Shown here: in pieces, positions 40,013 to 50,792 of the stretch
How positions within the stretch are numbered: the stretch's first letter is position 1
Layout of the letters: every line of letters begins with the position of its first letter
Origin: Dehalococcoidia bacterium
GTDB lineage: Bacteria > Chloroflexota > Dehalococcoidia > Lucifugimonadales > UBA3495
Assembly (NCBI GenBank): GCA_030740155.1
Contig: JASLXV010000059.1
Location: 1-57,526, forward strand
Direction: 5' to 3'
DNA length: 57,526 bases
Notes under the pieces: generated by a model
The model's database searches: none
What the model was told of the DNA's origin: nothing
The model's input: the letters and a program-made list of their open reading frames with translations, nothing else
Position numbers and translations under genes: made by a program

Positions 40013-40459
40013 CTACGAGGCCTCTTCGTCCGGCTCCGAGTACTCGAGACGGCGCAGCCGCGGATAGACCAGCTCTTTGGGGCGCTCCAGGTCTTCGTCC
40101 GAGATGTCGGCGGACTCCTGTACCGGCCGGCAGCCCCATTTCTCGATTGCCTTCTGGACCAGTAACCGGACCACCTGAGGTGACCGGCCTTCAAGCCGGC
40201 CCAACTGGTAAGCAAGGGTGACCGCCAGTTGGCTCCGGGCGATCTGGTCGAAGGCCGCAGGGTCGGTCAGGTCTTCGGGCATGTCCCCGCACTGCTCCAG
40301 AAAGTCGTCGAGCACCTGGCCGATGACGTCCGGCAGGTTGGCCAGTTCAATCTCCACCATGTACCCGGTGAGGGTGTCGGCCAGTTCTATTATGCCCTCG
40401 TCCGGCAAAACCTGGCCGTGGAGGTTTACGTGCCTGGCGTCAGTCTGGTCATCGGCCAT
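40013..40459 (-). CDS. Hypothetical acidic protein
   Basis: 148-aa ORF with RBS ggag and typical GC3 codon bias. Confidence 0.7.
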   Translation of the reverse strand: MADDQTDARHVNLHGQVLPDEGIIELADTLTGYMVEIELANLPDVIGQVLDDFLEQCGDMPEDLTDPAAFDQIARSQLAVTLAYQLGRLEGRSPQVVRLLVQKAIEKWGCRPVQESADISDEDLERPKELVYPRLRRLEYSEPDEEAS

Positions 40460-41400: not shown

Positions 41401-42183
41401 TCATTCGTCCTCTTCGGGCGGTTCTTCCTCGTGCCCGGCCGCCGGTTCGGGGAAGAAGACGGAGCTGGGCAGAAGCGCGGCGGCCCGCCCCTTGGCCGGG
41501 GGACGCTGTTTGGGCATGTCCAGCAGCGCCGCCTTCAATTTGGCCAGGCTTTCGACGGCCACCGCACCCACATCGGCCACTAGGGCTTGGACCCCGACTT
41601 CGCGGATCGCCTCCAGGTCTTTGGCCCCCGGAAGCTGGGACACCCCCAGCAGCAGGTACTTGTCCACCCGCTGGCTAATCCCCGCGATGGTGGCCAGGTC
41701 CGCCAGGGTCCACGGCGCCGAAACCCCGGTCATGGACAGGAGCACCGCGTCGATGGGCAGGGCGTCTATGGCCCGTAATTGCTCGATTTCGATGCTGGGC
41801 TCGATGCAGAGGATCCGCGCCATGCCCTCGGACGCCAAGGCGGATATAGGCGTCCCCCCCAAGTTGAAGGCGAGCAGGTCGCTGCCCCCATCTTCATAGG
41901 TCCGGGCATCATCGTCGGTCAAAGAAGAAACACAGAGACCCCAGGGAATTGCCTCACCGAGCGACGAGCCTATTTCACTAAGTGGCGGCGACCCGCTGGC
42001 TAACGAGATCAGGGCGGCGTCTGGGGCCAGTCCGGCGAGGGCTCCCAGGCCGGCCGCGTAGTCGCCGGAAATCAGACCCACCAGGGCCATACCGGGTGTC
42101 TTTTGGGCGCGCGGCGCCCCAAATCCCATCGGAGCCGGCGCGCCAAGGCTGATCCGCTCTAAACGGTCTAGAAACTTGCTCAT
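41401..42183 (-). CDS. Hypothetical protein, possibly a degenerate HpcH/HpaI-like TIM barrel
   Basis: Alternating beta/alpha pattern, N-terminal PMGFG and an acidic tail. RBS aaggaa before ATG 42183. Confidence 0.6.
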   Translation of the reverse strand: MSKFLDRLERISLGAPAPMGFGAPRAQKTPGMALVGLISGDYAAGLGALAGLAPDAALISLASGSPPLSEIGSSLGEAIPWGLCVSSLTDDDARTYEDGGSDLLAFNLGGTPISALASEGMARILCIEPSIEIEQLRAIDALPIDAVLLSMTGVSAPWTLADLATIAGISQRVDKYLLLGVSQLPGAKDLEAIREVGVQALVADVGAVAVESLAKLKAALLDMPKQRPPAKGRAAALLPSSVFFPEPAAGHEEEPPEEDE

Positions 42184-42371
42184 CCATTCCTTCCACGTAT
42201 CAGATGTTGTATCTATTCGCGGCGTTCCATCCGTTCCCACCGCCGGTCTCCCGGAATTCTCCGGGCACCCCTCAAGGCCCCTGGCCGGCAGGTTGCTGGT
42301 AACGGGATGTCGTCACGGCTGATTATAAACCATGGAGACCGGTTTGTCGGCCCAGGCGGCCCGTGAGCCCG

Positions 42372-42440: not shown

Positions 42441-42596
42441 GTCCCGCGGCGGGTTTCGGGCGTCGCTGGCCCATCATTCTAAGGAAACCGGTCAGGCCCA
42501 GGCGAAAACCAGCAGTACCCTCGGGTTACCTTCGTCAGATGGCCGTAGTACAATACGCTGGCCGGCAGGTCCGGCGACTTTAGCAGGCTGACTGGA

Positions 42597-43547
42597 GTGA
42601 ATATGACGGTCGAAGTCCGCAACCTATTGGCCAATCCGGAGACCATCCCCTTCTCCCGTTTGAAGTACCTGGCCCGAAATCCTGACGAGGACGTGGTCAA
42701 GTTCTTCAACGAGCTTTTCAACCTGGCGGCAGTGGCCAAGGATGAAGACGACTGGTCCCCCGTGGAGCAGTTCCTGGACCGGTGGGAAGACCTCCTGGTT
42801 TTGCGTCTCGAGCCACCGATGCGTTACGACAAAGCGCCCTGGGCCCCCTTCACCAAGCCGCTTTCCGAGGCCCGGATCGCCGTCCTGACCACCGGCGGCA
42901 TATACGTAGAGGGCCAAACCCCTTTCGACGTCAACGGTGACTGGAGCTTTCGGGAGATCCCCCTGGACTCCCCCGCCGGGGATTTCCGGGTGGCCCACAC
43001 CCACTACGACACCACCGGCGTCGCCGAGGACGTTGACGCCGTGCTGGCGATGCATCGCCTGGTGGAGCTGGAAGCCGAGGGGTTGATCGGCGAGGCCGTG
43101 AGCCCTGCCTACAGTTTCATGGGGTACATCCCCGATCCTTCCGGCCTCATCGAGGCTACGGCCCCGGAAGTGGGCGAGCGGTTGAAGGAGGCCAAGGTCG
43201 ACGGGGCCGTGATCGGCACCACTTGACCCCGGTGCCATCAGTCCGGCGGACTGATCGCCCGGGCCATCGAGGCAGCCGGCGTGCCCACCGTGGTGGTGAT
43301 GCTGGACCGGCGCAAGGCGGCAACCATGTCGGTCCCCCGAGGGTTGGTGCTCCGCTTCCCCTTCGGACGGCCCTTCGGCGCGCCGGGAAATCCGGACCAG
43401 CAGCGGGTGGTGCTGGAGGACGCCCTGGCGTTGCTCAGCTCGGCCCAGTTGCCGGGGGAGATACAGACCAAGCCCTATCGCTGGCGGCGTGAGGATTTCG
43501 GGCGGATTCTGGCGGAGCGGCGGGCGGCCCGGTCCGCGGGGAGCTAG
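42597..43547 (+). CDS. Selenoprotein of the D-proline/glycine reductase component B family (PrdB/GrdB-like), with UGA at 43224 read as Sec
   Basis: PLSEARIAVLTTGG, DWSFREIP and HTHYD are followed in frame by T-[UGA]-P-R-C-H-Q-S-G-G-L-I-A-R-A-I-E-A-A-G-V-P-T-V and PFGRPFGAPG. The two called ORFs are in the same frame. Confidence 0.9.
43227..43263 (+). promoter_or_regulatory. Bacterial SECIS-like hairpin
   Basis: Perfect stem atcagtcc-ggc-ggactgat (43237-43255) on a cccgg/ccggg base. The G-starting loop is 18 nt after the UGA. Confidence 0.8.
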
Positions 43548-43614: not shown

Positions 43615-45192
43615 ATGATTGACCTGCTGATCAAGAACGGGCTGATCGTCGACGGCACGGGCAGCCCCGGCTTCTACGGCGCGGCCGCCATAACCGGAGA
43701 CACGGTTCACATCCTGCGGGGAGACGTATCCGGCCTGGAGTCTGCCCGTACCATCGACGCCACCGGCAAGGTGGTCAGCCCCGGCTTTATCGATTTCCAC
43801 GCCCACTCCGCGCTGATGCCTCTGTGGGAACCACGGCACGAGCCGAAGGTGCGGCAGGGAATCACGACCGAGCTTATCGGGGTCGACGGAAACTCCTATG
43901 CCCCATTCAGCAGCGAGGAAGACCTCATCCAGTTCGCGGACCTGAACTCGGGGCTGGAGGGCAGCCTCCCTCTGCCCGGCCGGTGGTCCAGCGTCGCCGA
44001 GTACCTCGACCTGTTCGACGGGAAGGTTGCGGTCAACATCGCCTACATCATCGGTAACTCCGCCATCCGCATCGGCGCCATGGGCTGGAAGGATCGGCCG
44101 GCCTCTCCGGCCGATATACGGAGCATGCGGGCGATATTGCGAGAAGGAATGGAGGACGGGGCCTTCGGCATCTCCACCGGGCTGGACTACCCTCCCGGCT
44201 GCTATGCCGATACCGATGAGTTGGTTCAGCTCAGCGAAGAGGCGGCCCGGCTGGGAGGCATCTACCACACCCATCTCCGGAACACCCTGGGTGACCGGTT
44301 CCTTGATCCGATGCGGGAAGCGATCGAGATCGGACGGCGCTCCGGTATACCCTCTCACCTGACTCACCTGTACCAGCGGATTACCCATCCCGGAGGGGCT
44401 AGGAGGATGCTCCAGGTGGTGGAGGATGCCTATGATGAGGGTCTGGACGTGACGTTCGACACCTATCCTTACCTCCTCAGCAGCACCCGGGCCCTGATCG
44501 TCCTCCCTCTCTGGTGCCAGGAGGGCGGTCCCAAGCGGGTGAGGGAAGTCCTGGGCTCGGCCGAGGGCCGGGAACGGCTGCGCGCCGAGATGCGGCCCCG
44601 GGGCACCTCCTGGCACGACATGTGGTTGACCTACTTCAAACAGCCTGCCAACCACCGCTACGAGGGCTTGTCACTGGGCGAGATCGCCGAGGCGGCGGGC
44701 CAACACCCCGTGGACGTTCTCTGCGACTTTCTTCTGGAGGACGGCCTCCAGGTCTCCTACGTGACGCCCGGCGCCAACGGCCCCACCCTGCCCGAGTTCG
44801 TGACCCATCCGCTGTCCATGGTGGGCACCGATGGGGTGCTCGTGGGTGACTACCCAAGCCCCCGTACCTACGGCACCTTCCCGGCAATCCTCTCCGAGTA
44901 CGTCCGGGAGGAACGGTTGATGTCCCTGCCCTTCGCGATACGGAAGATGACCTCCTTCCCGGCCCAAAGGCTGGGACTGTCCGGCCGGGGGATTCTGCGC
45001 GACGGCTTCAAAGCGGACCTGGTGGTCTTCGACCTCGACACGGTCAGGTCACCGGCCACGCGGCGGGACCCCAAGCAGTTCCCGGTAGGGATCGATCACG
45101 TGATCATCAACGGCGCCCTAGTGATCGACGCCGGGTCCCACACCGGCGCCACTCCCGGTAGGGCCTTGCGGCGGGGACGCCCCGGCGGCTGA
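43615..45192 (+). CDS. N-acyl-D-amino-acid deacylase (D-aminoacylase) family amidohydrolase
   Basis: SPGFIDFHAHS, QGITTE, GAFGISTGLDY, THLR, DTYPY, GTDG, PRTYGTFP. Confidence 0.92.
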   Translation: MIDLLIKNGLIVDGTGSPGFYGAAAITGDTVHILRGDVSGLESARTIDATGKVVSPGFIDFHAHSALMPLWEPRHEPKVRQGITTELIGVDGNSYAPFSSEEDLIQFADLNSGLEGSLPLPGRWSSVAEYLDLFDGKVAVNIAYIIGNSAIRIGAMGWKDRPASPADIRSMRAILREGMEDGAFGISTGLDYPPGCYADTDELVQLSEEAARLGGIYHTHLRNTLGDRFLDPMREAIEIGRRSGIPSHLTHLYQRITHPGGARRMLQVVEDAYDEGLDVTFDTYPYLLSSTRALIVLPLWCQEGGPKRVREVLGSAEGRERLRAEMRPRGTSWHDMWLTYFKQPANHRYEGLSLGEIAEAAGQHPVDVLCDFLLEDGLQVSYVTPGANGPTLPEFVTHPLSMVGTDGVLVGDYPSPRTYGTFPAILSEYVREERLMSLPFAIRKMTSFPAQRLGLSGRGILRDGFKADLVVFDLDTVRSPATRRDPKQFPVGIDHVIINGALVIDAGSHTGATPGRALRRGRPGG

Positions 45193-45441
45193 ACCGGGCG
45201 GGTCCGCCAGGGGCTTCGCGCTTGCGATTTGTGGGGATCCGATCGTTGGAGCCCGCCGCCCGTCGCCGCGGGGGGACGATTTCGCGGGTTGGATGGCCCG
45301 GACGGACCGGCGAAAAGGGCGCGTTCAGACCGCACTGAAATACCTTTTCCCGCCACTCCGCGTCGCGCGATCCCTCGGTTACACGGTCTCCTAGGTGGTG
45401 GTACCCCCTTTTTGCGCACCATTTTCGAGTCCATGCAGGTG

Positions 45442-45470
45442 TTGCCAACGCGGCAAGAGGTGTTTATAAT
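45442..45470 (+). promoter_or_regulatory. Sigma70 promoter of the DUF1800-DUF1501 operon
   Basis: TTGCCA-17 bp-TATAAT. Confidence 0.75.
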
Positions 45471-45636
45471 GTGGTCGACCATTAAAGAATAATGGTTATT
45501 ATCAACAAGCCAAGGTGCAATAAAGCCGAAACTCCGTTGATCGGGCAATCTCCGGTTCACGTCTGTTTTCAGCAGCCCGGTTGATGGCGGAGCGGTTGCA
45601 CTGCGAAGGTTAATTCAAAGCGGAAGGAGGCGTCGC

Positions 45637-47037
45637 ATGTCACACAAAGACGATCTGGCCCTGATGGCCCACCTGATGCGCCGGGCAGGCTTCGGAGCGA
45701 CTCAGGAGGAACTCGAAGGGTATGTGGTCAAGGGGTATGAGGCCGTGGTTGATAACCTCATCGATCCCCCAGATGACCAGCCGGGCGGGAAAGCCTCGTT
45801 CATGTTGCGCTTTCACCCCGGTTGTTTGCTTCCCGGCGGCATCCCCACAATGGGTCAGGCCAGTTGGCTGTACAACATGATCAGTACCGAGCGCCCGCTG
45901 GAAGAGAAGATGGCCCTGTTCTGGCACCATGTTTTTGCCACCGGCAACGCCAAGGTGGACAACTGTGACCAGTTGCTGATCCAGCTCGACCTGTTCCGCC
46001 AGAACGGTATGGGCAACTATCGCGACATACTGGTCGATTTGGCCAAGGACCCGGCGATGCTTTTCTGGCTGGACAATAACGAGAATCACCGGGATGCGGT
46101 GAACGAAAACTGGGGCCGGGAGCTGCTGGAGCTGTTCTCCATGGGAGTCGCCAACTACACCGAAGTGGACGTGCGGGAAGCTTCCCGCGCTTTTACCGGA
46201 TGGACCGTTGGCAACAAACTTCCGCGCCTGCCTTACGGCCGCTTTCCCTGGAGTTTCGTGTACCGGGAGGAGGACCACGACGATACCGAGAAGACCTTCC
46301 TGGGACATACCGGCCGCCTCAACGGCGAGGACATAATCGACATCGTGGTCAAACAGCCGGCTACCGCCCGGTTCATTTGCCGCCACCTCTACAACTTCTT
46401 CGTCGCCGACGAGCCTCAGGTCCCCGCTTGGACCATTGAACCCGCCAACGATGAGGAGGCTCTCGAGGCGATGGTTTCCAGCTTCGTAGAGTCGGGCTAC
46501 GAGATGAAGGCCGTTCTCCGGACCATACTCACGTCCGACTTCTTCAAGAACGCCCGGTTCTCCAAGATCAAGAGCCCCGCGGAGGTTGTGGCTGGGACCT
46601 TGAAGCTGGTGGGCTCCTTCAAACTCCCCGAACCGGGGCTCGTGGCAGTCGCTTCCCAGCCGGGCTACATGGGCCAGTCGCTGCTCGACCCGCCCAGCGT
46701 CGAGGGCTGGCACACCGGGCCGGAGTGGATCAACAGCGGCTCATTGCTGGCCCGGGTCAACTTCGTGGCCGACCGGGTATCCGACCCCAACTTGCCTGGA
46801 ATAAAAAACATAATCAACAGCATGAAGGCCGCGGGGGTTTCCACCGCGGACGAGCTTCTTGATGCCGCCCTCGAAAGCATGGGGTACCTGGAACTCAGCC
46901 CCGAGACGAGAGAGCAACTCATCGGCTACGCCAAGACGACCGGCAACTTGGACTGGAATGACCAGGCCACCGCGGAAACTCGGGTCGGCGAGATGTTGGC
47001 CTTGATCGGCGCTACCACGGAATATCAATTCGGTTAA
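45637..47037 (+). CDS. DUF1800 family protein
   Basis: AHLMRRAGFG, LEEKMALFWHHVF, PAMLFWLDN, NENWGRELLELFSMG, RAFTGW, PPSVEGW. Confidence 0.92.
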   Translation: MSHKDDLALMAHLMRRAGFGATQEELEGYVVKGYEAVVDNLIDPPDDQPGGKASFMLRFHPGCLLPGGIPTMGQASWLYNMISTERPLEEKMALFWHHVFATGNAKVDNCDQLLIQLDLFRQNGMGNYRDILVDLAKDPAMLFWLDNNENHRDAVNENWGRELLELFSMGVANYTEVDVREASRAFTGWTVGNKLPRLPYGRFPWSFVYREEDHDDTEKTFLGHTGRLNGEDIIDIVVKQPATARFICRHLYNFFVADEPQVPAWTIEPANDEEALEAMVSSFVESGYEMKAVLRTILTSDFFKNARFSKIKSPAEVVAGTLKLVGSFKLPEPGLVAVASQPGYMGQSLLDPPSVEGWHTGPEWINSGSLLARVNFVADRVSDPNLPGIKNIINSMKAAGVSTADELLDAALESMGYLELSPETREQLIGYAKTTGNLDWNDQATAETRVGEMLALIGATTEYQFG

Positions 47038-47072
47038 CTCCCGGTGAAACCGGAGGAATGAGGAGATAGAAT

Positions 47073-48200
47073 ATGACCTCTACAAAGCGAGACCCGGTAA
47101 TCGTGATCTTGCAGCTTACCGGCGGCAACGACTACTTCAATACCGTCATACCGTACAACGACCCCCTCTATTACGACAACCGTCCGACCCTGGCCATTCC
47201 CCAGGAGCAGATGATCAAGGTCGATGATGAGATCGCCCTGAATCCCAACATGGGTCCCATCAAGGATCTGTATGACCAGGGGAAGGTGGCCATCATCCAC
47301 GGCATAGGCTATGCCAAGTCTCCCCGGTCCCATTTCCGCTCGATGGACATCTGGCACACCTGTGAGCCGGACTCGGTTGGTACCGAGGGTTGGGCCGGCC
47401 GCGTCACCCGAGAGTTGGACCCCGGTAAAGAGAATGTGCTTACCTCCATTAACTTCGGGCACGGGCTTCCCCGGGCGCTGACGGTCCCCGGCGTCCCCGT
47501 GGCCGCCATTGCCGACCTCAGCACCTACGGAGTGCTCACCAGCATCAATGACCAGGCGCAGCGGTCCAAGGCCCTGGACCTGTTCGCCCGGATGTACTCC
47601 CCGGCCATCGGCGCCGGCGCGGTGGGCGACTACCTGCGCAGCACCGGCATGGACGCCCTCAAGGGCGCCGACATCGTCAAGGTGGCGCCCGAGAGGTACT
47701 CCTCCAACGTGGAGTACCCTAGCACAGAGATCGGCGGTCACCTGCGCGACATCGCCCAAGTGTACTTGGCCGACCTGGGGACCCGGATCTTCTACACCCA
47801 GCAGCCCGGCTTCGACACCCATGCCGGGCAGGCGCCGATGCATCCGCAACTGTGGAAAGAGGTGTCCGAGGGTGTCACCGCTTTCTTCGACGATCTGCAC
47901 GAGCACGGCCGGGGCGACGATGTGGTCATGTACCTGTTCAGCGAGTTCGGCCGCCGTGTCCACGACAACGGGTCCGGCACGGACCACGGCGCCGCCGGCG
48001 TATCATTCGTCATCGGTGACCCGGTGAAGGGCGGCATGTACGGCGAGTACCCGTCCCGGAAGGCAGAGAACCTGGAGCAGGGTGACCTGGTCCCGAACTA
48101 CGACTTCCGCGGGGCCTACTCCACCATCATCGAAGACTGGCTCGGCCTGGACGCCAAGCCCATCGTCAACGGCAACTTCGAGAAGCTGTCCTTCCTGTAG
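47073..48200 (+). CDS. DUF1501 family protein
   Basis: QLTGGND, RSHFRSMDIW, GFDTH, SEFGRR, GTDHG. Confidence 0.92.
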   Translation: MTSTKRDPVIVILQLTGGNDYFNTVIPYNDPLYYDNRPTLAIPQEQMIKVDDEIALNPNMGPIKDLYDQGKVAIIHGIGYAKSPRSHFRSMDIWHTCEPDSVGTEGWAGRVTRELDPGKENVLTSINFGHGLPRALTVPGVPVAAIADLSTYGVLTSINDQAQRSKALDLFARMYSPAIGAGAVGDYLRSTGMDALKGADIVKVAPERYSSNVEYPSTEIGGHLRDIAQVYLADLGTRIFYTQQPGFDTHAGQAPMHPQLWKEVSEGVTAFFDDLHEHGRGDDVVMYLFSEFGRRVHDNGSGTDHGAAGVSFVIGDPVKGGMYGEYPSRKAENLEQGDLVPNYDFRGAYSTIIEDWLGLDAKPIVNGNFEKLSFL

Positions 48201-48446
48201 GTCAGCGCTCACACCGGTAGCGGCCCCATGCAGGGGCCGGTTACGGAAATGTTAGGCCGGCCGGAGGTTTCCCTCGCCGTGTTGCGGCGGGCAAGTCAAA
48301 GGCCCGTGGGAGCTGTGAGAACGGCCCGTTCGGGCAAGTTCGGAGCTTCCGGGGCAGCAGCCATCCGGGATGTTGACGGGTGTCGACAAAGGATCGCGGC
48401 ACGTGGCGGGGGAATCGGCCGGGAGATTACTCAAGGGGGATAGATC

Positions 48447-49472
48447 ATGGCACAGAATACTGTAGCCTCTGGGCGCGCCTGGATATACAGCCACAACGTG
48501 GGTCGTGGCGCAGCGGCGGGCAACGGGTTCCGATTGCCCGTCGGAGTCGCCGCAGCCAAGAACAATGTGCTGTTCGTGGCCAACCGGGGCCTCGCGGCTT
48601 CTGCCGGCGGCACGGTCGGGGTCCGGATCAGCAAGGTTACCTTGGACCACAAGTTCCTCGGTGAGTTCGGAGGGAACGGTGACAGCCCCGGGGAGTTCAC
48701 CTGGCTCACTTCCGTGGCCCTGGACCGGGCCGAGAATGTCTACACCACCGACGAATGGCTGGACCGAGTCACCGTCTTCGATAACGACGGAAAATTAATC
48801 AAGACTTGGGGCGAGTCGGGGGACGGTGAAGGGCAGCTTCGGGGACCTTCCGGCATGGTTTTCGACGCCGATGAAAACCTGCTCATCGTCAACGGCGGTA
48901 ACAGCCGCGTCCAGAAATTTACCAAGGACGGCAAGTACATCAGCGGATTCGGCAAGAAGGGCAGCGGCGAGGGCGAGCTGGACATGCCCTGGGGCATCAA
49001 TACCGACAAGGACGGCAACATATATGTCGCCGACTGGCTCAACAACCGGGTGCAGAAGTTTAGCCCCGATGGCGCATTCCTGCTCACCTTCGGCCAAGGC
49101 GGCAGCGGCCCCGGCTCCCTCGACCATCCCGCGGGGGTGGCGATCGACGGCGACGGAGACGTATACGTGGCCGACTCGGAGCACGAGCGGGTGGTCATCT
49201 ACGACCCCAGCGCCAAGCTCCTCGCCTACTTGACGGGAGACGCCGTCGAGGCGTCGCCGTGGGCCCAGATGTCCATCGACGCCAACCCGGACGTGGCGAA
49301 AGCCCGGAGGCGGGTCGATGATCTGGAGCAGCAGCAGCGGACCTTCCGGATTCCCACGAGTGTGGCCTTCGACCGCGAGAACAACCGCCTGATCGTCTGC
49401 GACACACAGCGGAGCCGGCTTCAGATTTACGAGAAGGACAACAGTTACCAGGACCCGCAGCTCAACCTGTAG
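48447..49472 (+). CDS. NHL-repeat six-bladed beta-propeller protein
   Basis: Repeated G..GE(F/L)..P.G...D..GN.YVAD..N.RVQKF. Confidence 0.92.
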   Translation: MAQNTVASGRAWIYSHNVGRGAAAGNGFRLPVGVAAAKNNVLFVANRGLAASAGGTVGVRISKVTLDHKFLGEFGGNGDSPGEFTWLTSVALDRAENVYTTDEWLDRVTVFDNDGKLIKTWGESGDGEGQLRGPSGMVFDADENLLIVNGGNSRVQKFTKDGKYISGFGKKGSGEGELDMPWGINTDKDGNIYVADWLNNRVQKFSPDGAFLLTFGQGGSGPGSLDHPAGVAIDGDGDVYVADSEHERVVIYDPSAKLLAYLTGDAVEASPWAQMSIDANPDVAKARRRVDDLEQQQRTFRIPTSVAFDRENNRLIVCDTQRSRLQIYEKDNSYQDPQLNL

Positions 49473-49501
49473 GGCAAACCCAGGCCCGCAACCGGTGCAG
49501 A

Positions 49502-49543
49502 AGACAACCGGCGTCCCGAAAAAGGACGCCGGTTGTCTGTTTT
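49502..49543 (+). terminator. Rho-independent terminator
   Basis: 15-bp perfect stem agacaaccggcgtcc/ggacgccggttgtct followed by gtttt. Confidence 0.8.
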
Positions 49544-49700
49544 GGCTGGGGAGAGCAGGACGGGCCGGCGTCAATTCTCGGATTCAAAGCCCTTTGGCTG
49601 GCGGCGTGGGTGAGCTGACCCCTCGGTCCCCGCTTTGTAAAGAGAAGATGTAGATGGCCTTGGCCGGCTATTTTCGTGGCCCCGGATAGCTGCGCCACGG

Positions 49701-50792
49701 CTAGTAGGAGATCCGATACTTCTCGCACGCCGCTTCGTCCAACTCCATGCCCAGGCCCGGAGCCTGGGGAGCGACCAAATGCCCGGCCTCCAGCGTCAGC
49801 CGGTTCTTGAGGATGGGGCCGGACCTGGGCAGGTATTCAACCAGGTGCCCGTTGGGCACGGCCGCCAGCAGGTGGACGCTGACCTCGGTCATGACGTGTC
49901 CCGCCACCGGTATCCCTCTGGCCTGAGCCAGGTTGGCCGCCTTCATCCACGGCGTGATACCGCCCACGCGTGGCAGGTCGATGATGGCGATGTCCACGGC
50001 TCGGGCCTCGAAGGTCTTCTGGAAAGCGTCCAGGCCGAACAGGTGCTCCCCCGCCGCGATGGGCACGTCCAGAACGTGGGCCAGGTGGGCCAGCCCGGCC
50101 AGGTTCTCGTGGGATACCGGGTCTTCCAGCCACACGATTCCCGCCTCTTGCAGGGCCCGGCCGGTTACCACCGCCTGGGCCTCGTTCCAGCTTTCGGTGG
50201 CGTCCACCATGATGCGGACGTCCGGGCCGGCGGCCTCGGTAGCGGCCCGCACCCGGGCCACCTCCTTGGCTGGGCTGTCCTCGTTCCCCACCCGGACCTT
50301 GAGCATGTCGTAACCCTCGGCCACGTGGGCCTGGGCCGACCGGGCCAGCTCATCCAGCGACAGGTTGTACCACAGGTTGTCGCTGGCGTAGGCCCGGACC
50401 CGGTCCCGGTAGCCGCCCAGGAGGCGGTAGAGAGGCTGCCCCACCGACTTGCCCGCGGCGTCCCAGAGGGCGATATCCAGGATCGAGATGGCCATGTTCA
50501 GCAGGCCGCCCGGCCCGGTCCAATCGCCGGCCCGTTCCATACGGGAGCGGGCCGCCTCGATCTCCATGACGTTCATCCCGATTAGCAACTTGCCCAGCTC
50601 GCTGGCCGCTTGGGCCAGGGATTTCAGCATGGTGGGCCGGAAAGACACGAGGAATCCGATGCCCTGAACGCCGCCGGCAGTGGACACGCGGGCCATGACG
50701 TGCCAGTTAGAGCTAACCGTGTGGCCGGTCGCCTTGTACTCTCGCTCCGCCGGTATATCCAAGACTTCAATGTCGACACGGGTTATCTTCAT
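49701..50792 (-). CDS. Mandelate racemase/muconate lactonizing enzyme family (enolase superfamily)
   Basis: DIALWD..GK, KVR, MVD, WLEDP, AAGE, GGIT, PGLG. Confidence 0.93.
   Translation of the reverse strand: MKITRVDIEVLDIPAEREYKATGHTVSSNWHVMARVSTAGGVQGIGFLVSFRPTMLKSLAQAASELGKLLIGMNVMEIEAARSRMERAGDWTGPGGLLNMAISILDIALWDAAGKSVGQPLYRLLGGYRDRVRAYASDNLWYNLSLDELARSAQAHVAEGYDMLKVRVGNEDSPAKEVARVRAATEAAGPDVRIMVDATESWNEAQAVVTGRALQEAGIVWLEDPVSHENLAGLAHLAHVLDVPIAAGEHLFGLDAFQKTFEARAVDIAIIDLPRVGGITPWMKAANLAQARGIPVAGHVMTEVSVHLLAAVPNGHLVEYLPRSGPILKNRLTLEAGHLVAPQAPGLGMELDEAACEKYRISY

Follow-up and report, generated by a model that had tools for sequence, protein, structure and literature searches.

The window, that is, the whole stretch of 57,526 nucleotides analysed here, contains at 42597–43547 on the forward strand a frame whose sole in-frame stop is TGA 43224–43226. 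Translation with TGA read as selenocysteine (Sec, U) gives the context T-T-U-P-R-C-H-Q-S. The original prediction described this region as two listed open reading frames of 209 and 88 residues that lie in frame across a single TGA, and both the split and the shared frame are borne out by the translation. It joined the two pieces into one Sec protein of about 315 residues, in a range that begins at 42597. The size is sustained, with 314 residues counted from ATG 42603, and the start is corrected: judging from the sequence, ATG 42603 is more likely to be the start codon than GTG 42597, because GGAG is found 5 nt upstream and because the homologous database proteins are exactly 207 residues long in 106 of the 120 cases among the matches listed. 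The gene was also expected to have been missed by standard annotation. This holds by half, since the truncated 207-residue piece is already deposited as ‘PrdB’ or ‘reductase selenoprotein B family’.

Table 1. Parts of the selenoprotein gene and associated sequence elements in the window.
Feature	Position	Strand	Remarks
Whole gene	42603–43547	+	314 residues with TGA read as Sec; TAG stop at 43545–43547
Shine-Dalgarno-like GGAG	42594–42597	+	Putative function, from sequence; 5 nt before ATG 42603
N-terminal helical domain, residues 1–72	42603–42818	+	Predicted helices 5–9, 16–25, 28–48 and 52–67
PrdB-like core, residues 73–296	42819–43490	+	PF07355, TIGR04483; predicted Rossmann-like alpha/beta fold
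In-frame TGA, predicted Sec208 of U-P-R-C	43224–43226	+	Homolog comparison
Cys211, predicted resolving cysteine	43233–43235	+	Invariant in 33 of 33 long forms
SECIS-type hairpin, 8 bp, GGC loop	43237–43255	+	Outer imperfect stem 43229–43262
Predicted C-terminal helix, residues 299–313	43497–43541	+	Follows a Y-R-W-R-R-E-D motif; helix kept in most long forms

Two genes on the reverse strand, 41401–42240 and 40013–40459, encode conserved proteins of 279 and 148 residues that have no Pfam match. In 10 of 14 close loci, the window being one of them, this pair is found upstream in divergent orientation, and a sigma-70-like site at 42350–42322 on the reverse strand points at it. That site was the one promoter-like site that the scan returned on the reverse strand near the selenoprotein gene; on the forward strand it returned no promoter or terminator site. 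Downstream, a block of about 7.5 kb (43615–50792) with genes for an amidohydrolase, DUF1800 and DUF1501 proteins, an NHL-repeat protein and an enolase-superfamily member separates the selenoprotein gene from coaX-coaBC, which follows the selenoprotein gene directly in most close relatives. Long near-identical contigs cover the DUF1800–DUF1501 pair in three metatranscriptome runs.

The host genome measures 3.6 Mb with 62.6% GC; its completeness is 93.7% and its contamination 7.65%. Because the nearest named records are those of Dehalococcoidia, Chloroflexota and SAR202 cluster bacteria, a SAR202-type host is likely.

The in-frame TGA and its hairpin

We place at about 97% the probability that TGA 43224 is recoded as the predicted Sec208, which would make the two database fragments a single 314-residue protein. 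In 44 loci, every match that extends over at least 120 query residues (45 of 45) has a TGA at the site, followed by x-x-C; one locus, whose match is short, was left out. A profile of the N-terminal domain led to 28 loci that were examined, of which 20 were new; the site is TGA in 19 of these and Ser (TCG) in one, L085. As anticipated, relatives other than L085 carry TGA or Cys at this position: TGA in homologs that include those with the N-terminal domain (long forms), and Cys in two distant alphaproteobacterial proteins. The mean identity of 32 homologs to the window protein is 0.33 over residues 1–72, 0.50 over residues 73–207 and 0.58 over residues 209–300; the part behind the TGA is therefore the best conserved.

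Ten nucleotides past the TGA begins a perfect 8-bp stem, AUCAGUCC/GGACUGAU, in which 43237–43244 pair with 43248–43255 around a GGC loop, nested in a longer imperfect stem. The original prediction of a perfect 8-bp hairpin with a G-starting loop is thereby confirmed, except that it had been placed immediately after the TGA, without the 10-nt gap. The minimum free energy of the hairpin is −21.2 kcal/mol, with z-scores of −3.4 in a 39-nt window, −1.4 in 57 nt and −1.1 in 97 nt. In an alignment of 16 rows, 98.4% of 128 cells are paired and two of the pairs show two-sided changes; slid controls reach 13–47%. Across 52 long-form TGA loci, which are related and in many cases from one genus, all eight pairs form in 44 and seven of eight in the other 8; four form in the Ser variant. 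The six GrdB paralogs of the genome display a hairpin at the same offset with different stem letters. In a control for chance, whose filter was designed after the window site had been seen, such a perfect hairpin was found in 7 of 2578 TGA-ended reading frames of at least 150 residues in the genome. Five of the seven also stay open for at least 70 codons past the TGA, and these are the window gene and four of the GrdB paralogs.

The Sec machinery that was to be looked for is present in the genome: selA, selB and selD score above curated cut-offs, and tRNA-Sec(UCA) is there too, all on other contigs of a bin with the contamination given above. The selD gene itself carries an in-frame TGA. A UGA site, a 3′ SECIS-type hairpin and a sel gene set, the marks by which a bacterial selenoprotein is predicted, were thus all found. 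A genuine stop at the TGA, with the pieces on either side being separate proteins or remnants of a pseudogene, is hardly credible: every protein among the 120 matches listed covers at most 66% of the read-through protein, and the contamination and the separate contigs of the sel genes leave this reading some room, but the stop codon at the Sec site of the family is always TGA and never TAA or TAG, the frame downstream of it is the best conserved part, the hairpin covaries and decays in the sole Ser variant, and the joined chain models as a single fold (pLDDT 91).

Co-occurrence with selA was discarded as evidence. Of 42 carrier genomes, 39 have selA, which is no enrichment, since in the order as a whole 135 of 151 genomes have it (90 of 97 among those of high quality); the background is too high to be informative. 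The Sec trait looks near-universal in the order.

The Ser variant (L085:5849–6841, genome G445) is a long form whose hairpin has decayed; its genome carries selA and seven PF09338 genes. The variant is possibly inactive or repurposed.

Five short metatranscriptome contigs from four runs lie on the gene, four of them at least 99% alike and at a depth of 2–4, in runs that were chosen for holding this stretch and that come without a strand or DNA control; none of the five bridges the TGA.

The PrdB-like core and the N-terminal domain

The protein had been assigned to the PrdB/GrdB family, and an alignment to the GRDB family had been proposed as a check. The core exceeds the gathering cut-off of PF07355 (GRDB; 40.6 bits against 22) over profile positions 211–347 only. 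The best NCBIfam match is TIGR04483 (PrdB), to which the core aligns over positions 17–236 of 238 with 161.4 bits, under the equivalog cut-off of 300. All full-length GrdB-type models also score under their cut-offs (TIGR01917, 52.7/602; NF040794, 47.7/800; NF040795, 52.6/775; TIGR01918, 59/65.45 bits), and their matches begin only at profile position 208. The assignment is therefore upheld for the family core, which is closest to PrdB; the protein is no orthologue of PrdB or GrdB, judging by the scores under the cut-offs, a position outside the PrdB clade and the lack of a partner gene. When matches of any length are counted, 118 of 301 genomes in the class have a PrdB-like protein; one of the 118, G244, is marked unpublished, and no other result given here draws on it.

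The invariant residues of the core are G98, D113, R117, H132, Y135, D136, D143, F172, G174, C211 and S214. The H-x-x-Y-D motif, D113, R117, D143 and F-x-G are common to the core and annotated PrdB. The identity to annotated PrdB from plasmids is 31–37% over about 215 residues. As in PrdB (TIGR04483; WP_228110000.1 and WP_081630564.1), the Sec of a U-x-x-C motif occupies the same site. By contrast with the short N-terminus of PrdB, the window protein has a 72-residue helical domain and additionally a C-terminal helix. The motif itself differs: it is U-G-T-C in these PrdBs and, more generally, U-G-T/S-x in PrdB and GrdB, whereas most long forms read U-P-x-C, three read U-A/T-x-C and the Cys homologs read C-P-x-C. 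With GrdB, GrdF and GrdH (PF07355, TIGR01918) the protein shares the Sec site and the SECIS geometry seen in the six GrdB paralogs of the genome; it lacks the first 210 profile positions, and no grdE or grdA gene is its neighbour.

In a tree of 57 cores, which includes only four PrdB rows and to which the GrdB outgroup attaches on a long branch at an open fork, the four annotated PrdBs form a clade of their own (support 100/100). A 100/97 branch splits 33 long forms from PrdB, from nine short forms and from the two alphaproteobacterial Cys homologs, and three short paralogs without the N-terminal domain are nested among the 33. The Cys homologs (WP_207415257.1 and WP_035710215.1, named ‘glycine/sarcosine/betaine reductase selenoprotein B family protein’ in the database) resemble the window protein in being solitary, with no prdA or grdE within 4 kb, in their C-P-x-C motif and in about 29% identity. 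They differ in carrying Cys for Sec and no hairpin (4–5 of 8 pairs), in their other N- and C-terminal extensions and in their long separate branch. The nearest neighbour of the PrdB clade (support 91/91) is a short-form PrdB-like selenoprotein from a genome of the same family as the host (L059), whose sequence bears a C-terminal extension of about 100 residues predicted to be helical. Among the four annotated PrdB loci, three show the order prdA-prdH-prdB. The fourth, from Peptoclostridium acidaminophilum (L096:3935–4648; NZ_CP007453.1), has neither prdA nor prdH within 4 kb, and the N-terminus of its PrdB is divergent.

A search for solved relatives of the core found none by sequence and none by Foldseek at E ≤0.001. 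In the predicted model, the core adopts a Rossmann-like alpha/beta fold in which Sec208 follows a strand and opens the helix 209–224. VIA-align returned only generic alpha/beta matches, the best being a sugar-binding regulator domain (Z 9.4, rmsd 6.1, 147 residues aligned), and no thioredoxin-fold chain is found among the structural matches listed for the core.

The extension in front of the core had been described as acidic, probably helical and not recognised, and this description is supported. It comprises 72 residues, with 15 D/E against 8 K/R and no Cys or His. Whether modelled within the full chain (pLDDT 91.4) or alone (82.6), it is predicted to form short helices and a long helical hairpin. 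No Pfam match was obtained for the domain of the window, and the best match of a family member has E 0.006, in 1 of 19. The structural matches are generic helical hairpins, with a best Z of 5.0 (rmsd 2.6, 49 residues aligned). In an alignment of 35 rows, F34 is invariant and S18 and L38 are nearly so. A predicted homodimer of the domain scored 0.24 against a mark of 0.42, which speaks neither for nor against dimerisation.

The profile of the N-terminal domain matches 30 genomes out of 401 in the class and 30 out of 151 in the order, where the three lowest-scoring matches are candidates; in a phylum sample, 4 of 301 genomes have a match, and the two outside the class are marginal (E about 4e-4 and 6e-4). 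The domain is fused to a PrdB-like core in 28 of 28 loci examined, which include 20 of the 27 strong non-self matches in the order. Other fusions were found in 0 of 65 candidates scored (proteins of 364–2000 residues), a weak test. Twelve short database matches that were considered as free-standing copies look like long forms with a truncation or a frameshift. In family f11, a tandem paralog (L046:652–1497 and L047:2617–3462, both on the reverse strand) carries a short hydrophobic Trp/Arg-rich N-terminus on the same Sec core, which indicates that the N-terminal extension is exchangeable, and the three close paralogs without the domain indicate that it is dispensable in some members. The Sec core of L056 has neither the helical domain nor the hydrophobic N-terminus.

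Partner genes and neighbours

A PrdA/GrdE-type gene was sought with the GrdE profile and Prd proteins, and none was found in 39 flanking loci and the window. The genes prdA, prdH and prdF were not found in the host genome at its 93.7% completeness. In tblastn searches, for which three PrdA and three PrdH proteins were used against the genome and 40 loci, the PrdA queries gave only weak matches, to GrdE paralogs; PrdH, PrdE, a racemase and a PrdC fragment gave no match in the genome at E 0.001. PF09338, the PrdA/GrdE family, is absent from 21 of 42 carrier genomes and from 13 of 32 high-quality ones, and five of the negative carriers are single-contig genomes that are 93–96% complete. GrdA is absent from 22 of the 42.

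The host genome itself has one GrdA and, elsewhere, eight matches to PF09338; six of these adjoin a full-length GrdB of their own, and two lie at contig starts. The six full-length GrdB genes (contigs C69, C17, C54, C79 with two loci, and C91; L004–L017 and L063) each adjoin a GrdE/PrdA-family gene, and two of them read U-G-T-G or U-G-T-S, without the cysteine of UxxC. In the six aligned GrdE-like proteins, the Cys of the PrdA T-C-I-G-P site seems, by eye, to be absent, as in FarE and GrdI. The sequences suggest that the host genome may hold an expanded set of pyruvoyl-free reductases.

In 34 loci, no neighbouring gene recurs from lineage to lineage, and no transporter or catabolic gene is conserved. 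Only close kin share a divergent block of hypothetical, M50 and amidohydrolase genes upstream and coaX-coaBC downstream. A link to CoA metabolism was considered from coaX-coaBC downstream in close relatives, panBC upstream in one locus (L034) and acyl-CoA enzymes flanking one clade, and was rejected because no such neighbour recurs across lineages. A functional link to the amidohydrolase gene at 43615 was likewise rejected, as the gene is not at that place in relatives.

Proposed function and its implications

The known enzymes use Sec to attack the substrate carbon, and cleavage of the selenoether gives a selenenylsulfide, a Sec–carbon chemistry that a 2023 review describes as undocumented in organic chemistry (PMC10298544). 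D-proline reductase needs the pyruvoyl group of PrdA, which is made by PrdH, and the U151C variant of PrdB is inactive, so that Sec is needed for activity (PMC11229817). A Schiff base activates the C–N bond of glycine and proline, whereas no pyruvoyl group arises in the partner subunits that serve betaine and fluoroacetate (PMC10838667).

We consider the chances about even that the protein is a Sec/Cys reductase that works alone, with no PrdA/GrdE partner, on a small molecule whose leaving group is built in. SelB would read the hairpin, and Sec would most probably be inserted at residue 208. By analogy with PrdB and GrdB, the Sec208 selenolate may attack the substrate and Cys211 may resolve the resulting adduct, leaving a selenenylsulfide that a thioredoxin or small thiol may recycle. 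With the pyruvoyl subunit missing, the substrate would presumably need no Schiff-base activation, as for a quaternary amine, a sulfonium, a halo-acid or an S–S or S–O bond. The N-terminal domain might conceivably cover the surface that PrdA or the N-terminal domain of GrdB covers, as a lid or as a module for assembly; with no Cys or His, the domain is itself unlikely to take part in redox chemistry.

The absence of a PrdA/GrdE-type gene at the loci and of PF09338 from half of the carriers argues for such a reductase, as do the putative pocket residues shared with annotated PrdB. Precedents for a GrdB-type Sec attack without pyruvoyl are described for FarB/FarE, where it is predicted, and for betaine GrdI (PMC10838667). 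These precedents still employ a GrdE-like subunit: the fluoroacetate reductase of Synergistota, as described in that source, has a full-length GrdB and a GrdE-like partner in an operon and lacks CxxC. In addition, no neighbour indicates a substrate, the host genome has its PF09338 matches elsewhere, and U-P-x-C at a helix start suits a general thiol oxidoreductase equally. A solitary gene is also no proof of a solitary protein, because the annotated prdB of Peptoclostridium lacks a prdA within 4 kb as well. The more specific version, in which the N-terminal domain replaces PrdA/GrdE in a single-chain, pyruvoyl-free reductase and Sec208/Cys211 cleave a C–N, C–S or C–halogen bond of a marine molecule in SAR202-type hosts, is doubtful.

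The main rival is an upkeep enzyme, a general oxidoreductase of the thiol-disulfide, peroxide or sulfoxide type, which would have lost C–N cleavage and whose N-terminal domain would bind a client or reductant; we regard it as possible, if on the unlikely side. Its predicted U-P-x-C motif comes after a strand and opens a helix, as do the motifs of glutaredoxin and DsbA, and PrdB and GrdB have U-G-T/S-x instead. The gene is a single copy that often lies among housekeeping genes, ‘PrdB’ is reported as abundant in surface-ocean selenoproteomes alongside Prx/Trx-like families, and Table 1 of PMC1794560 puts proline reductase among homologs of thiol oxidoreductases. This reading is weakened by the lack of a thioredoxin fold among the structural matches listed for the core, by the invariant polar residues common with PrdB, as expected of a small-molecule pocket, and by a distribution (30 of 151 genomes in the order) patchier than that of a core upkeep gene.

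Pairing in trans, in which the protein would be a selenoprotein B subunit that joins a GrdE/PrdA-like protein encoded elsewhere and feeds GrdA, is improbable. The PF09338 matches and the GrdA of the host, the 21 of 42 carriers that have PF09338 and the existence of a prdB without a near prdA would allow for it, but six of the eight host matches adjoin their own GrdB and the other two lie at contig starts; the other 21 carriers have no PF09338, and 16 of the 21 positives belong to one family. Several database names, including those from JGI, make the protein the PrdB subunit of a genuine D-proline reductase, which is very improbable: the best NCBIfam match and the identity to annotated PrdB point that way, but the score stays far under the equivalog cut-off, the 100/97 branch lies between the PrdB clade and the long forms, the Prd partners gave no match beyond the weak ones to GrdE paralogs, and D-proline reductase activity is described as needing pyruvoyl-PrdA (PMC11229817).

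Marine U-P-x-C ‘PrdB’ selenoproteins are already known and were catalogued in 2005–2008. The Sargasso Sea data contained 42 PrdB selenoprotein genes; ‘PrdB’ was the third most abundant selenoprotein family there, and it was ascribed to proline reduction (PMC1088965). The GOS survey counted 235 PrdB sequences, and its sequence file labels U-P-x-C forms ‘Proline reductase’ (PMC2398784). The consulted parts of these two papers contain no functional test of marine ‘PrdB’, and those of PMC2398784 on fusions contain no PrdB fusion. ‘Proline reductase’ is also listed in Anaeromyxobacter and Geobacter (PMC1794560), and a 2026 review covers D-proline reductase and GrdB with no mention of Chloroflexi or Dehalococcoidia in the parts consulted (PMC13188914). 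The marine proteins resemble the window protein as U-x-x-C PrdB-like selenoproteins from sea water. They differ in that the long-subfamily motifs CNRSGG, CHQSGG, CNQSGG, CNRSV, WRRE, AAFSR and PFSKL have 0 matches in GOS Dataset S1; single matches there to CNRS and PFSRL are unrelated proteins. A literature search, which left most subscription papers outside its reach, found no publication on a SAR202/Dehalococcoidia selenoprotein or PrdB-like subfamily. What appears to be new is the long Dehalococcoidia (SAR202-type) subfamily, together with the evidence that it can occur in genomes without any PrdA/GrdE gene; both are seemingly undescribed in the searchable literature.

The gene in the window is very probably a real selenoprotein gene; it is conserved, is cut short in databases and belongs to a known wider family. 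Databases cut the subfamily at the Sec codon, and several entries give D-proline reductase, which the partner-gene tests contradict; proline reduction should not be inferred from this gene in metabolic models of these Dehalococcoidia. A soluble 314-residue protein from genomes without PrdA/GrdE makes the function of such proteins testable, and lets one ask whether Sec–carbon chemistry can run without a pyruvoyl subunit. If the single-chain reductase is true, it would be the first function for the partnerless marine ‘PrdB’ selenoproteins and would provide a minimal system for the poorly understood chemistry of selenium–carbon bonds.
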